Assembly: GCF_058153355.1 (NCBI RefSeq)
Contig: NZ_CM177019.1
Reading direction: 5' to 3' (one strand)
DNA: 64,000 nt
Part shown: piece by piece, positions 12,831 through 23,747 of the stretch
How positions within the stretch are numbered: the first letter of the stretch is position 1
Layout of the letters: each line of letters begins with the position of its first letter
Program-made: the position numbers and the translations under genes
The notes under the pieces: model-generated
Told to the model about the DNA's origin: nothing
What the model saw: only the letters and a program-made list of their open reading frames with translations
Database searches by the model: none

Positions 12831-13488
12831 ACTTAACTCCACTGTCACACTTAACTCCCTTTCCCTTATTGGAATGCAGAGAAATAATCCTCGAGAATAT
12901 GATTTATCATGCATATAAAATAAGAAAAAGGAAAATGAGAAAAATTAGGAAAACATAAAGATACGGGTTCTTATAAAAACAGAACCCATTGCCGAGTAAA
13001 GAGTCATTTACCGCAGCATAATAATCCATAATGTTTTTGTTGCGAAAACAATCTAATCATAACTACCGCGAATACTCAATCATCCACAAAATGGATTAAA
13101 TGTGCTTTTTTAATAATTAATTTATATGTTTAATGCATTAATTCTTAACATTAATTGAACAATAATATTCACCAAATGAATATCAAAAAATTAGCAAAAC
13201 ATATAATTCAATACAAATCATCAAGATAGGTTTTGTAACGCGTGCATTTTATCCCCCTTTTCCTCGTTGATTAGATGCAAAAATTTATTCTGAAATATGT
13301 CAACCGATGAAAAGCGTCGGTGGTTAAGCAGAAATTAATATCGCTTGTTTTAACCACCGCAGCACAATTAGCTAATTTGACGAATGCAGAACTCACTCTG
13401 GCGGAACGTTTTTGTTGCGTCAGGGTTGACATCCGTTTTTGTATCCAGTAACTCTAAAAGCATATCGTATTCATCTGGAGCTGATTTA

Positions 13489-13575
13489 ATGACTCACATC
13501 GTTCGCTTTATCGGTCTACTACTACTAAACGCATCTTCTTTGCGCGGTAGACGAGTGAGCGGCATTCAGCATTAA
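13489..13575 (+). CDS. leuL: leu operon leader peptide
   Basis: 28-codon [31 protein letters not shown] with four consecutive CUA Leu codons, immediately followed by an attenuator hairpin and upstream of leuA. Confidence 0.85.
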
Positions 13576-13596
13576 GCCAGCACGCAGTCAAACAAA

Positions 13597-13626
13597 AAAC
13601 CCGCGCCATTGCGCGGGTTTTTTTAT
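13597..13626 (+). terminator. leu attenuator (rho-independent terminator)
   Basis: aaaaCCCGCGCcattGCGCGGGttttttt: a GC-rich stem followed by a T-run, just after leuL. Confidence 0.75.
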
Positions 13627-16332: not shown

Positions 16333-18349
<2,017 letters not shown>

Positions 18350-18382
18350 TTTGTACACCGTCCCGCACTCAATCGCCAAAAA

Positions 18383-18609
18383 GAAAAAAGCCAGCAGATA
18401 ATCACTGCTGGCGTGGCGATTAACACCAATACTCAGTCACACATGATGTCCGCAAATCAGTAGTCAGAATGACTCCCCTCCCACTGCATCAGTTCTTCAA
18501 GCATAGTTAATCGTTGTGGGACGCTTAACCAACGCAACCAGCACAACGTCGCTGTCGCGGTAAAATAGTGCTGATAAAACTGATGCATGGGACACCTCCT
18601 TGCTTCATC
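18383..18609 (-). ncRNA. sgrS: SgrS small RNA (glucose-phosphate stress)
   Basis: The minus strand reads GATGAAGCAAGGAGGTGTCCCATG...TGACTGAGTATTGGTGTTAATCGCCACG CCAGCAG tgattat CTGCTGG CTTTTTTCTTTTT. It contains the sgrT ORF, the conserved 3' base-pairing region and an intrinsic terminator, and is divergent from sgrR. Confidence 0.8.
18457..18588 (-). CDS. sgrT: SgrT small protein (PtsG inhibitor) encoded within SgrS
   Basis: 43-codon ORF MHQFYQHYFTATATLCWLRWLSVPQRLTMLEELMQWEGSHSDY with an AGGAGG Shine-Dalgarno sequence; near-identical to K-12 SgrT as I recall it. Confidence 0.8.
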   Translation of the reverse strand: MHQFYQHYFTATATLCWLRWLSVPQRLTMLEELMQWEGSHSDY

Positions 18610-18676: not shown

Positions 18677-20332
18677 ATGCCATCTGCTCGTCTGCAACAA
18701 CAGTTCATCCGCCTGTGGCAATGCTGCGAGGGTAAATCGCAGGACACAACGCTCAACGAACTAGCGGAGTTATTGAGCTGCTCCCGTCGTCATATGCGCA
18801 CCCTGCTCAATACCATGCAGGATCGCGGCTGGCTGACGTGGGAAGCGGAGGTCGGGCGCGGTAAACGCTCACGTTTAACATTCCTCTATACCGGGCTGGC
18901 GCTTCAGCAACAGCGGGCGGAAGACTTACTGGAGCAGGATCGTATCGATCAGTTGGTGCAACTGGTTGGCGACAAAGCGGCTGTGCGGCAAATGCTGGTT
19001 TCTCATCTGGGGCGTACCTTCCGTCAGGGGCGGCACATCCTGCGCGTTCTCTACTATCGTCCGTTGCGCAATCTGCTGCCCGGCAGTGCATTGCGCCGTT
19101 CCGAAACCCATATCGCCCGGCAAATCTTCAGTTCGCTAACGCGCATAAATGAGGAAAATGGGGAACTGGAAGCAGACATCGCCCACCACTGGCAGCAAAT
19201 ATCACCGCTTCACTGGCGCTTCTTTTTGCGTCCAGGAGTCCATTTTCATCATGGTCGTGAACTGGAAATGGACGATGTGATCGCCTCTTTAAAACGAATC
19301 AATACGCTGCCGCTCTATTCGCATATTGCTGACATTGTGTCGCCGACGCCCTGGACGCTGGATATCCATCTCACGCAACCGGACCGCTGGTTACCGTTAC
19401 TGCTGGGGCAAGTTCCGGCGATGATCCTGCCACGAGAATGGGAAACCCTCAGTAACTTTGCCAGCCATCCCATCGGAACGGGTCCTTATGCAGTGATCCG
19501 CAACAGCACCAATCAACTGAAAATTCAGGCATTCGATGACTTCTTCGGTTATCGCGCATTAATCGACGAAGTAAATGTCTGGGTTCTGCCAGAAATTGCC
19601 GACGAGCCAGCCGGCGGTCTGATGCTAAAAGGGCCGCAGGGCGAGGAAAAAGAGATTGAAAGTCGGCAGGAGGAAGGTTGCTACTATTTACTGTTCGACA
19701 GCCGCACCCACCGTGGGGCGAATCAGCAAGTCAGGGACTGGGTAAGTTATGTGCTTTCTCCAACTAATCTGGTCTATTTCGCCGAGGAACAATACCAGCA
19801 ACTCTGGTTTCCGGCTTATGGACTGCTCCCCCGCTGGCATCATGCCCACCCGGCGCAGTGCGAAAAACCTGCCGGGCTGGAAAGCCTCACCCTGACCTTT
19901 TATCAGGATCATATTGAGCATCGGGTGATTGCCAGGATCATGCAGCAGATTCTGGCAAGTCATCAGGTCACACTTGAAATTAAAGAGATCAGCTATGATC
20001 AGTGGCACGAAGGAGAGATCGAGAGCGATATCTGGCTTAACAGCGCCAACTTTACGCTGCCGCTGGATTTTTCGCTGTTCGCGCACTTGTGCGAGGTGCC
20101 GCTGCTCCAACACTGTATTCCGATCGACTGGCAAGCCGACGCCGCCCGCTGGCGCAATGGCGAAATGAATCTGGCGAACTGGTGCCAGCAACTGGTCGCC
20201 AGCAAAGCAATGGTGCCGCTCATCCACCACTGGCTGATCATTCAGGGGCAACGCAGTATGCGCGGCCTGCGCATGAACACTCTCGGCTGGTTCGATTTTA
20301 AATCCGCGTGGTTTGCGCCACCGGATCCATGA
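18677..20332 (+). CDS. sgrR: Transcriptional regulator SgrR
   Basis: Canonical start [69 protein letters not shown] (551 aa), with a solute-binding-protein-like C-terminal domain. Confidence 0.93.
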
Positions 20333-20359
20333 TTGCTGGTTGATAACAAAATCACTACA

Positions 20360-20455
20360 CTAACGCCGTTCTCAACGGGGTGCCACGCAGACGCGTGCGC
20401 TGAGAAAATACCCGTCGAACCTGATCCGGATAACGCCGGCGAAGGGATTTGAGGC
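20360..20455 (+). promoter_or_regulatory. TPP riboswitch (thi-box) in the thiBPQ leader
   Basis: Conserved thi-box elements ...ACGGGGTGCC...CTGAGA...ACCCGTCGAACCTGATCCGGATAACGCCGGCGAAGGGA immediately upstream of thiB. Confidence 0.75.
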
Positions 20456-20495
20456 TCCTTCTCAAGTCCTTTGCCACTCTTCTTTGAGGTGCAAA

Positions 20496-21479
20496 GTGTT
20501 AAAAAAATATCTTCCCCTGCTGTTGCTCTGTACAGCACCCGCTTTCGCTAAACCCGTTCTGACTGTTTATACCTACGATTCCTTCGCCGCCGACTGGGGG
20601 CCAGGTCCGGTGGTGAAAAAAGCCTTTGAAGCCGACTGTAATTGCGAACTGAAACTGGTGGCGCTGGAAGATGGCGTTTCGCTTCTCAACCGTCTGCGGA
20701 TGGAAGGCAAAAACAGTAAAGCCGATGTGGTGCTGGGGCTGGATAACAATCTGTTAGATGCCGCCAGCAAAACTGGGCTGTTTGCTAAAAGCGGTGTGGC
20801 AGCGGATGCCGTTAACGTTCCCGGCGGCTGGAAGAATGACACTTTCGTACCGTTTGATTACGGTTACTTCGCCTTCGTCTATGACAAGAACAAACTGAAT
20901 AATCCGCCGCAAAGCCTGAAAGAGCTGGTTGAAAGCGATCAGAACTGGCGAGTGATTTATCAGGATCCGCGTACCAGTACGCCGGGCCTGGGCCTGTTGT
21001 TGTGGATGCAAAAAGTCTATGGCGATGACGCCCCACAAGCCTGGCAGAAACTGGCGAAGAAAACGGTCACGGTCACCAAAGGCTGGAGCGAAGCCTACGG
21101 CCTGTTTTTAAAAGGCGAAAGCGATCTGGTACTGAGTTACACCACCTCTCCGGCTTATCACATTCTCGAAGAGAAGAAAGATAACTACGCCGCCGCGAAC
21201 TTCAGCGAAGGTCACTATTTGCAAGTGGAAGTCGCCGCCCGCACCGCTGCCAGCAAACAGCCGGAGCTGGCGCAAAAATTCCTCCAGTTTATGGTTTCTC
21301 CGGCTTTCCAGAATGCGATCCCAACCGGCAACTGGATGTATCCGGTGGCAAATGTCACGCTGCCTGCCGGGTTTGAACAATTGACCAAACCAGCAACCAC
21401 GCTGGAGTTCACGCCAGCCGAAGTGGCGGCACAACGTCAGGCATGGATTAGCGAATGGCAACGCGCCGTCAGCCGTTAA
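20496..21479 (+). CDS. thiB: Thiamine ABC transporter periplasmic binding protein ThiB (TbpA)
   Basis: GTG start giving MLKKYLPLLLLCTAPAFAKPVLTVYTYDSF (327 aa) with a signal peptide; the ORF track uses an upstream TTG. Confidence 0.9.
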   Translation: MLKKYLPLLLLCTAPAFAKPVLTVYTYDSFAADWGPGPVVKKAFEADCNCELKLVALEDGVSLLNRLRMEGKNSKADVVLGLDNNLLDAASKTGLFAKSGVAADAVNVPGGWKNDTFVPFDYGYFAFVYDKNKLNNPPQSLKELVESDQNWRVIYQDPRTSTPGLGLLLWMQKVYGDDAPQAWQKLAKKTVTVTKGWSEAYGLFLKGESDLVLSYTTSPAYHILEEKKDNYAAANFSEGHYLQVEVAARTAASKQPELAQKFLQFMVSPAFQNAIPTGNWMYPVANVTLPAGFEQLTKPATTLEFTPAEVAAQRQAWISEWQRAVSR

Positions 21480-23065
21480 TTCCCGGCTGGTTAATTCCAG
21501 GTGTAAGCGCCGCCACGCTGGTGGTAGCGGTTGCGCTGGCGGCGTTTCTCGCCCTGTGGTGGAACGCGCCGCAGGGTGACTGGGTGGCAATCTGGCAGGA
21601 CAGCTACCTGTGGCATGTGGTGCGCTTCTCCTTCTGGCAGGCGTTTCTCTCGGCGCTGCTCTCTGTCGTACCCGCGATATTCCTCGCCCGCGCGCTCTAT
21701 CGCAGGCGCTTTCCGGGTCGGCTGACGCTGTTGCGTCTGTGCGCAATGACCTTGATCCTCCCGGTGCTGGTTGCTGTTTTCGGCATTCTTAGCGTCTATG
21801 GTCGCCAGGGCTGGCTGGCATCACTCTGCCAATCGCTCGGTCTGGAGTGGACCTTTTCGCCCTACGGCCTGCAAGGTATTTTGCTGGCGCACGTATTTTT
21901 TAATCTGCCGATGGCGAGCCGCTTATTACTCCAGGCACTGGAAAACATTCCCGGCGAACAACGTCAACTTGCCGCCCAGCTTGGGATGCGCGGCTGGCAT
22001 TTTTTCCGCTTCGTCGAATGGCCGTGGTTACGGCGTCAAATCCCGCCGGTTGCCGCGCTTATCTTTATGCTCTGTTTCGCCAGCTTCGCCACCGTGCTAT
22101 CGCTGGGCGGCGGTCCGCAGGCGACCACTATCGAGCTGGCAATCTATCAGGCGCTGAGTTACGACTACGATCCCGCCCGCGCGGCGATGCTGGCGCTGAT
22201 CCAGATGATATGTTGCCTTGGGCTGGTGCTGTTGAGTCAGCGACTAAGTAAAGCCATTGCGCCCGGCACCACGCTGCTGCAAGGCTGGCGCGACCCGGAC
22301 GACCGTCTGCATAGCCGCATTTGCGACACGGTGTTAATTGTGCTGGCGCTGCTGCTGTTGCTGCCACCGTTACTGGCGGTGATTGTCGATGGGGTAAATC
22401 GCCAGTTGCCAGAGGTGCTGGCACAACCGGTGCTGTGGCAGGCGCTGTGGACCTCGTTGCGTATTGCGCTGGCGGCAGGCGTATTATGCGTAGTGCTGAC
22501 CATGATGCTGCTATGGAGCAGTCGCGAATTGCGGGCACGGCAAAAAATGCTGGCGGGTCAGGCGCTGGAGATGAGCGGAATGCTGATCCTCGCCATGCCG
22601 GGGATTGTGCTGGCAACGGGCTTCTTTTTACTGCTCAACAACACTATCGGCCTGCCGCAATCTGCTGACGGCATTGTGATTTTCACCAATGCGTTAATGG
22701 CGATCCCTTACGCGCTGAAAGTACTGGAAAACCCGATGCGCGATATCACCGCGCGTTACAGTATGTTGTGTCAGTCGCTGGGGATTGAAGGCTGGTCGCG
22801 CTTAAAAGTGGTGGAACTGCGCGCCCTGAAACGTCCGCTGGCGCAGGCGCTGGCTTTTGCTTGTGTGCTGTCGATTGGTGATTTTGGCGTGGTGGCGTTG
22901 TTCGGTAACGATGATTTCCGCACCCTGCCGTTTTATCTCTACCAGCAAATTGGCTCCTATCGCAGCCAGGACGGCGCGGTCACCGCGTTAATTCTGCTGC
23001 TACTCTGTTTTCTGCTGTTTACCGTGATTGAAAAACTACCGGGGCGAAATGTTAAAACTGACTGA
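21455..23065 (+). CDS. thiP: Thiamine ABC transporter permease ThiP
   Basis: 536-aa ORF starting [32 protein letters not shown]; a duplicated ABC permease fold; overlaps the thiB 3' end. Confidence 0.95.
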
Positions 23066-23747
23066 TATCACCTGGCTTTATCACCATTTGCCGATGCGTT
23101 TTAGCTTAACGGTGGAACGCGGCGAGCAGGTGGCGATCCTCGGGCCAAGCGGCGCGGGTAAAAGTACCCTGCTGAATTTGATCGCCGGTTTTCTGACGCC
23201 AGCCAGCGGTTCGCTGACTATCGATGGTGTTGATCACACCACGACACCGCCATCACGCCGTCCGGTATCGATGCTGTTTCAGGAGAACAACCTGTTCAGT
23301 CACCTGACGGTCGCGCAGAACATCGGGCTGGGGCTTAATCCTGGATTGAAGCTGAACGCGGCGCAGCAGGAGAAAATGCACGCTATTGCCCGTCAGATGG
23401 GGATTGATAATTTAATGGCGCGGTTACCGGGCGAGCTTTCCGGCGGTCAGCGTCAGCGAGTGGCGTTAGCGCGTTGTCTGGTACGCGAACAGCCCATTTT
23501 ATTGCTCGATGAACCGTTCTCTGCGCTCGATCCGGCGTTACGTCAGGAGATGCTGACGCTGGTGAGCACGAGCTGCCAGCAGCAAAAAATGACGCTATTG
23601 ATGGTGTCGCACAGTGTGGAAGATGCAGCGCGGATCGCCACACGCTCGGTGGTGGTCGCTGACGGGCGCATCGCCTGGCAGGGTAAGACTGAAGAATTGT
23701 TGAGCGGTAAGGCGAGTGCTTCGGCAATATTGGGGATTACGGGTTAG
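23049..23747 (+). CDS. thiQ: Thiamine ABC transporter ATP-binding protein ThiQ
   Basis: Canonical start [43 protein letters not shown] (232 aa) with Walker A and the LSGGQRQR signature. Confidence 0.93.

Follow-up and report, generated by a model that had tools for sequence, protein, structure and literature searches.

The short interval between sgrR and thiB in the 64 000-nucleotide stretch of DNA analysed here (the window) raises the question of what element lies there, how it might govern the genes that follow it, and where translation of thiB begins. A preliminary description, drawn up from the sequence without database searches, had placed a TPP riboswitch aptamer at 20360-20455 in the leader of a thiBPQ operon, and had noted that thiB appears to use a GTG start codon. 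The E. coli genome carries three TPP riboswitches, that of thiB (also called tbpA) being one among them. We are highly confident that window positions 20368-20498 are the 5' leader of the E. coli thiBPQ (tbpA-thiP-thiQ) operon for a thiamine/TPP ABC importer, and that this leader contains a TPP-sensing OFF riboswitch. The element is the already known E. coli thiB/tbpA riboswitch, which is also annotated as SroA, and the window carries an ordinary allele of it. It has little value as a discovery, being annotated automatically in RefSeq and having been dissected experimentally (PMC10578472, PMC11487190); it does have value as a calibration, in that a call made from the sequence was correct in place, identity and start codon.

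Identification of the leader and its operon

The whole window was scanned against 4227 Rfam families at their curated thresholds, and three matches exceeded these: the SgrS small RNA, the leucine operon leader and, on the + strand at 20366-20465, the TPP family (RF00059). The TPP match scores 66.1 bits where the gathering score is 54.3 (E 9.1e-11 for the whole window), covers model positions 1-105 of 105 and ends 31 nt upstream of thiB on the same strand, and it is on this Rfam model that membership of the TPP family rests. The preliminary description had named a covariance-model search as the check on its proposal, and since the match lies above the gathering score the proposal was not refuted. 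Its placement was also sound, as the P1-to-P1 core (20371-20453) falls inside the proposed interval and the Rfam match extends about 10 nt further in the 3' direction. The thi-box blocks that it had pointed to do lie downstream of the sgrR stop codon (TGA, 20330-20332) and ahead of the thiB GTG (20496-20498), and its identification of the leader as that of thiBPQ is upheld by equivalog HMMs, which name the downstream products as ThiB, ThiP and ThiQ and the upstream product as SgrR (Table 1). An antisense open reading frame of 98 aa at 20242-20538 was set aside; it is a mechanical ORF that runs over a conserved RNA element and has no annotation in its favour. The thiB and thiP genes overlap by 25 nt (21455-21479) and thiP and thiQ by 17 nt (23049-23065), an arrangement consistent with translational coupling, through which an effect of the riboswitch on thiB translation would be passed down the operon.

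Of 5426 complete E. coli genomes, 5399 match a 401-nt query (window 20250-20650). Identity over the 401 nt is 100% in four genomes and at least 99% in only five of the 5399, most lying between 95 and 99%; the window's allele of this E. coli locus is thus in the minority. In strain 2013C-4282, which is 100% identical, PGAP annotates sgrR, a "TPP riboswitch" at exactly 20366-20465, and then thiB, thiP and thiQ, with the thiB coding sequence starting at the equivalent of window 20496. In K-12 MG1655 the same interval, between sgrR and thiB, is annotated as the ncRNA sroA (b4762, 75516-75608, minus strand), an annotation missing from the preliminary description.

The K-12 thiB (tbpA) riboswitch/SroA is the orthologous element. 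The two are alike in locus, gene order (sgrR, leader, thiB-thiP-thiQ), length and GTG start, as well as in aptamer, linker and Shine-Dalgarno (SD) hairpin, and within the leader they differ in three loop bases. The leaders align without gaps, so K-12 coordinates carry over directly to the window, and the three differences are the only ones from the end of sgrR to the first codon of thiB: positions 20389-20390, in the 4-nt apical loop of P3, are AG in the window and GU in K-12, and position 20482, which belongs to the 6-nt SD-hairpin loop, is C in the window and U in K-12. Predicted energies are the same in both alleles (-8.9 kcal/mol for P3 and -11.6 kcal/mol for the SD hairpin) and no pair is altered. 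Because the three substitutions touch no pair, we infer that the window allele works like that of K-12, and it should behave in the same way.

Table 1. Positions of the features described in the text (window coordinates unless a related leader is named)
Feature	Position	Strand	Basis or remarks
Leucine operon leader/attenuator	13475-13624	+	RF00512, 147.5 bits; terminator hairpin and U-run
SgrS small RNA, with sgrT inside	18383-18609	-	RF00534, 226 bits; 5-nt gap relative to Rfam consensus near 5' end (model positions 12-16)
sgrR	18677-20332	+	PGAP from identical strain; NCBIfam SgrR equivalog, 1121.6 bits (cut-off 476)
Candidate weak sigma-70 promoter of thiBPQ/SroA	20333-20361	+	Inferred by offset from published transcription start
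TPP aptamer (RF00059 match)	20366-20465	+	66.1 bits; P1-to-P1 core 20371-20453
Transcription start of thiB mRNA and SroA	20368	+	Homology to 5' end of K-12 sroA (75608)
SroA equivalent (b4762, 93 nt)	20368-20460	+	Mapped from K-12 75516-75608 (-); aptamer and first linker bases
P1	CUCAA 20371-75 with UUGAG 20449-53	+	Canonical pairs
P2	20376-79 and 20381 with 20408 and 20411-14	+	Canonical pairs
P3	20382-88 with 20393-20400; apical loop AGAC 20389-92	+	Canonical pairs; covaries in relatives
J3-2	CUGAGA 20400-05	+	Rfam-consensus block
P4	20420-22 with 20443-45	+	Canonical pairs
P5	20426-29 with 20436-39	+	Canonical pairs
Antisequester (anti-P1), ligand-free ON state	20438-20475	+	Minimum-free-energy fold at lengths 111-123
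SD-sequestering hairpin, OFF state	CUUUGC 20469-74 with GCAAAG 20491-96; CUC 20477-79 with GAG 20486-88	+	-11.6 kcal/mol
Shine-Dalgarno GAGG	20486-20489	+	Read from sequence; 6 nt before start; AGG invariant in alignment
thiB GTG start	20496-20498	+	PGAP and K-12 annotations
thiB (tbpA), periplasmic thiamine-binding subunit	20496-21479	+	TIGR01276, 642.4 bits (cut-off 317); PGAP
thiP, permease subunit	21455-23065	+	NF006953, 1196.4 bits (cut-off 970); PGAP
thiQ, ATP-binding subunit	23049-23747	+	NF008039, 451.4 bits (cut-off 298); PGAP
Full P3 insert in related leaders	L005 (1266-1400), L012, L024, L032, L047, L055, L064, L069, L071		
Nested second insert in P3	L038, L041		
Shorter P3 versions	L009, L013, L079, L066, L070, L072		

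Promoter, transcription start and the SroA transcript

A sigma-70 consensus scan of 20000-20700 at the default threshold gave no promoter. As that scan was empty, a candidate promoter was placed by its offset from the published transcription start and by a conserved -10 hexamer; it would consist of a -35 TTGCTG (20333-20338) that directly abuts the sgrR stop, a 17-nt spacer and a -10 TACACT (20356-20361). The -10 hexamer, TACA(A/C)T, keeps its offset in 63 of 79 leaders and is displaced by 1 nt in a further 15, and the -35 hexamer is weak and variable among leaders. Native promoter-driven expression is reported to be low in K-12 (PMC11487190), which is consistent with the empty scan. The 5' end of K-12 sroA (75608) precedes the first base of the thiB GTG (75480) by 128 nt, and the GUG occupies +129 to +131 from the mapped start, in the same numbering as PMC11487190; in Salmonella, 5' RACE placed the start about 129 nt upstream of the GTG (PMC3511261).

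The SroA equivalent shares 91 of 93 bases with K-12 sroA, as expected of an orthologue, and a discrete, stable SroA transcript has been reported in both K-12 and Salmonella (PMC10578472, PMC3511261). On the + strand of 20000-20700 no terminator-like site was found, including after sgrR. With no terminator there and a -35 hexamer abutting its stop codon, sgrR transcription could read into the thiB leader, and such read-through could give riboswitch transcripts with a 5' extension (window 20330-20368).

Structure and conservation of the aptamer

The full P1, P2/P3 and P4/P5 architecture can form in the window, with canonical bases at all of the listed pairs (24/24) and only two non-standard positions flagged by cmscan; the optional P3a of the Rfam model is absent. 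The ligand-sensing core is also present, with CUGAGA in J3-2 as the pyrimidine sensor and ACCUGAU...GCG...AGGGA in P4/P5 as the pyrophosphate sensor, both equal to the Rfam consensus and to K-12 thiM. Which bases contact TPP is known from the crystal-structure literature on thiM. By analogy with the K-12 allele, three loop bases apart, that of the window would bind TPP and change expression in response to it.

The comparison with E. coli thiM can be taken further. The aptamer of K-12 thiM, which we take to be the one used for the crystal structures, belongs to the same family (RF00059) and scores 71.2 bits against 66.1 here, and both are without P3a. Its core blocks are those of the window (GGGGUGC, CUGAGA, AUACCCGU and ACCUGAUC.GGAUAA.GCC.GCG.AGGGA), whereas its P1, P3 and expression-platform sequences are different.

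Conservation was assessed in an alignment of 55 distinct Enterobacteriaceae leaders, those without long insertions, in which 96.6% of the cells of the OFF-state structure are paired. Compensatory changes are found in P3, where five of the seven pairs are altered on both sides; cells changed on both sides number 48, against a mean of 17.8 after shuffling, and none of 500 shuffles reached 48. The helices P1, P2, P4 and P5 and the lower SD stem are invariant in all 55 leaders, and being invariant they are uninformative on covariation, for or against. The antisequester, described below, is paired in 95.2% of cells in these 55 leaders and shows no covariation, both of its strands being invariant, and the block AGGTGCAAAGTG is likewise invariant in the alignment. 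Within these leaders, then, there is strong conservation, and independent structural support for P3 only.

Expression platform and order of folding

The region downstream of the aptamer can form two competing structures. One is the hairpin of the OFF state (span 20469-20496), which buries both the SD sequence GAGG and the G that opens the GUG, and holds C20482 in its loop. An alternative register of this hairpin (CACU with GGUG, with a bulged C) was rejected, its predicted energy of -6.8 kcal/mol being 4.8 kcal/mol worse than -11.6. The other is the antisequester, a helix of 16 bp with one bulge, in which GGCGAAGG (20438-45) pairs with CCUUUGCC (20468-75) in the outer part and AUUUGAGG (20447-54) with UCUCAAGU (20460-67) in the inner part. 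It uses up the 3' strands of P5, P4 and P1 and captures CCUUUGCC, which is the 5' strand of the SD hairpin. The helices are confirmed to be mutually exclusive, in that strand 20449-53 is shared by P1 and anti-P1, and strand 20468-75 by the antisequester and the SD hairpin.

Folding of the leader at stepwise increasing lengths gives a defined order of events. An anti-P1 hairpin appears from about 99-103 nt (20466-20470 made). Between 111 and 123 nt the fold of lowest energy is the extended antisequester, with CCUUUGCC captured, and the SD hairpin does not prevail until 20496 has been transcribed. This order agrees with the K-12 SHAPE-Seq pathway, in which an antisequestering stem at about length 100 is followed by a ligand-dependent split of the folding pathway; the K-12 antisequester is supported by mutagenesis as well as by SHAPE-Seq (PMC10578472). 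Equilibrium folding of the full leader, by minimum free energy and partition function and with the aptamer enforced or not, gave no SD-open state, the probability that G20486-G20488 are unpaired being at most 0.02 with or without the enforced aptamer. A simple thermodynamic two-state switch was therefore rejected, since the SD is paired in both equilibrium ensembles and no ON state emerges from them, and a kinetic model, based on published work together with the length-stepped folds, is preferred. That length-stepped folding predicts a switch and equilibrium folding does not constitutes independent agreement with a kinetic, co-transcriptional model.

Proposed mechanism

For the window itself, the analysis establishes family membership, conservation, every helix and, in silico, the sequence in which they fold. 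The proposed scheme is as follows. Transcription would start at about 20368 from the weak promoter adjoining the sgrR stop, and the first 86 nt or so would fold as the TPP aptamer. TPP bound during RNA synthesis would lock P1 (20371-75 with 20449-53) and P4/P5, and with P1 locked CCUUUGCC (20468-75) would remain free to pair with GCAAAG and the G of the GUG (20491-96). In the presence of TPP, CUC (20477-79) would also pair with GAG of the SD (20486-88), so that the ribosome-binding site would be hidden, leading to less ThiB synthesis and a secondary drop in operon mRNA. Without TPP, the CUCAAG of the linker would invade P1 and the helix would grow to 16 bp (20438-54 with 20460-75); this extended helix would wreck the aptamer and capture CCUUUGCC, so that the SD and GUG would emerge unpaired and a 30S subunit could load. 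The switch would thus be kinetic and not one of equilibrium, and the aptamer part would also accumulate as the stable 93-nt SroA. The likeliest reading of the ON state is that of an intermediate formed during transcription, which would give ribosomes a loading window and whose formation TPP would prevent, as in the published "transient intermediate" model.

For TPP dependence, translational control, use of the GUG and an effect at the mRNA level we draw only on the K-12 literature, and the window allele would be expected to share these properties. Berman et al. found that TPP represses expression in K-12, that point mutations in the aptamer abolish this repression, and that a mutation weakening the SD stem breaks regulation (PMC10578472). 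Grondin et al., also in K-12, reported TPP repression of 2.3-3.2-fold in translational and 1.6-3.9-fold in transcriptional fusions (PMC11487190). Repression by TPP is abolished in the aptamer mutants G17C and G35C (PMC10578472, PMC11487190); G35C, which removes the ligand response, is a loss-of-function change at the position of window G20402, within J3-2 (PMC11487190). In the same study the SD mutation G121C (window 20488) abolishes regulated expression, the 30S toeprint at C144 (window 20511) drops 2.2-fold with TPP, and TPP sensing is more efficient during than after transcription (PMC11487190). The two K-12 studies disagree as to whether mRNA levels are regulated too (PMC10578472, PMC11487190).

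Other riboswitches of the family offer instructive parallels. The thiM element is likewise a translational OFF switch acting by SD sequestration, although the Rho-dependent mRNA effect needs 34 codons in thiM, whereas tbpA requires 12 codons and is insensitive to bicyclomycin (PMC11487190). According to the literature, E. coli thiC also has an aptamer of the TPP family, follows the anti-P1 logic, senses its ligand co-transcriptionally and has a regulatory pause close to the start codon (PMC5234074, PMC11487190), but is larger, uses Rho-dependent termination controlled by the aptamer domain alone, and has been proposed to follow a different co-transcriptional folding route (PMC11487190).

Alternative explanations

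The principal competitor to translational control is premature transcription end, by an intrinsic terminator or by Rho, as the main mechanism, with control of translation secondary. It draws on the finding that in K-12 TPP lowers the expression of transcriptional lacZ fusions 1.6-3.9-fold, and does so even when the start codon is inactive (PMC11487190), and on the use of Rho by the E. coli thiC and thiM riboswitches (cited in PMC10578472, PMC11487190). We nevertheless regard it as distinctly improbable, since the + strand of the region is devoid of terminator-like sites, as noted above, and the SD hairpin is followed by GUGUUAAAAAAA and not by a U-run. In K-12, moreover, single-round in vitro transcription yielded only the full-length product at rising TPP and bicyclomycin left repression unchanged (PMC10578472), while the mRNA effect is lost on mutation of the SD (PMC11487190), which suggests that it depends on ribosome binding. 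With sequestration of the ribosome-binding site retained as the preferred main mechanism, a secondary effect at the mRNA level is real in one K-12 study (PMC11487190). A quite different objection, that the resemblance to a TPP riboswitch is due to chance or marks a decayed, non-functional relic, is in our view as good as ruled out: nothing was found in its favour, and while 66.1 bits is only about 12 above the gathering score, the E value is 9e-11, the functional thiM aptamer has a similar score at 71.2 bits, the core is invariant in about 55 Enterobacteriaceae leaders of many genera, and the element is nearly identical to the active one of K-12.

The annotation of this stretch in K-12 as the ncRNA sroA invites the view that its main role is that of a trans-acting small RNA accumulating independently of thiBPQ control, the riboswitch being incidental. 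The data that bear on this come largely from Salmonella, where sYJ20/SroA is the orthologous leader upstream of tbpA and likewise gives a stable transcript of about 100 nt (PMC3511261); the Salmonella locus in our set (L028) scores 67.8 bits with the Rfam TPP model. There exposure to tigecycline or tetracycline raises SroA about 3-fold and leaves tbpA mRNA almost unchanged, deletion lowers survival and is complemented from a plasmid, and an sroA deletion strain is less fit in mice (PMC3511261). The targets, however, are TargetRNA predictions only (p ~0.006) and unvalidated, the authors themselves allow that the phenotypes may reflect altered tbpA expression, and E. coli SroA was not upregulated in the same assay (PMC3511261). 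The induction by antibiotic stress is thus a point of difference between the Salmonella and E. coli elements, and the trans role is a proposal (PMC3511261). As aptamer and expression platform fully explain the sequence conservation, we think a primarily trans-acting SroA very improbable, and the operon riboswitch remains our reading of the element. The separate suggestion that SroA (20368-20460) is a functional RNA in its own right, whether a trans-acting regulator or a TPP-buffering RNA, with a 3' end that arises when the linker, single-stranded in the TPP-bound form, is processed, also seems unlikely to us; if true, it would explain the antibiotic-stress and mouse-fitness phenotypes of Salmonella sroA mutants.

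Initiation codon of thiB

The GTG start proposed for thiB is corroborated on several counts. It is annotated in RefSeq for the identical strain and in K-12, it is present in 79 of 79 leaders (the window and 78 related loci, from Escherichia, Citrobacter, Salmonella, Enterobacter, Klebsiella, Kosakonia, Leclercia, Buttiauxella, Cedecea and other genera), and it is preceded at 6 nt by the GAGG SD sequence. In K-12 the mutation U130A, which changes GUG to GAG (window 20497), abolishes translational-fusion expression, and the toeprint at C144 is at +15/16 from the GUG and so supports this start (PMC11487190). An in-frame TTG at 20484, the start of the mechanical ORF, was rejected because it overlaps the SD sequence, is without an SD of its own and is not conserved, the same position reading TTG, CTG, ATG, AAG, CAG and others among relatives.

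The start codon is also part of the structure. G20496 pairs with C20469 and so closes the sequestering helix, and this C-G pair is found in all 55 aligned leaders. Replacement of G20496 by A costs 2.6 kcal/mol of hairpin stability, and the range for A or U is 2.6-2.8 kcal/mol. It may be that the universal GUG is kept partly because its G closes the SD-sequestering helix, in which case the identity of the start codon would be part of the switch. What is of interest here is a GUG start that is both invariant across genera and structurally tied to the sequestering helix.

The preliminary description had suggested N-terminal proteomics as one means of confirming the start. ThiB is annotated in K-12 as a periplasmic binding protein, and its N-terminus, MLKKYLPLLLLCTAPAFA followed by KPV, looks like a Sec signal peptide cleaved between the two. 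If it is cleaved, mature ThiB should lack the initiator residue, and N-terminal proteomics would thus probably be uninformative on the start.

Insertions in related leaders and neighbouring features

Some Citrobacter, Klebsiella, Raoultella and Pseudocitrobacter leaders contain an ERIC-like repeat inside the distal P3 arm, between GGGGUGC and GCUGAGA, with the core intact; full, nested and shorter versions are listed in Table 1. A 127-nt query from this insert gave a median of 10 matches per E. coli genome at about 85% identity, and on account of these multi-copy matches we call the insert ERIC/IRU-like. While leaders with the shorter P3 expansions pass the Rfam threshold (59-72 bits), those with the full insert fall below it and were missed at the gathering threshold, their aptamer halves being recovered by a motif search. 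It is therefore probable that automatic annotation misses the full-insert leaders. The P3 insert may also account for a report that in K. pneumoniae the transcript hybridising to SroA is larger (PMC3511261).

Three individual leaders are unusual in other respects. That of Citrobacter sp. wls619 (L011; 1360-1490) carries, in addition, some 125 nt of repeat-like sequence inserted into the SD-hairpin loop. In a Pluralibacter MAG (L076; 1300-1420) unrelated DNA replaces the 5' two-thirds of the aptamer and only GGCGAAGGGATTTGAGG and the expression platform are left; probably either this riboswitch is broken or the assembly is chimaeric. A contig titled 'Chryseobacterium sp. 18061' (CACSKA010000010.1; L047) carries an Enterobacteriaceae-type sgrR-thiB locus with a ThiB 85% identical and an ERIC-bearing leader, and is probably from a mislabelled or contaminated assembly.

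Upstream in the window there is no setA, the gene for a sugar exporter which in K-12 separates sgrS from leuD; here leuD stops at 18349, the 3' end of SgrS lies at 18383, and 33 nt (18350-18382) come between them. The same contiguous leuD-sgrS junction occurs in 2143 of 5426 complete E. coli genomes, and is thus a common presence/absence polymorphism.
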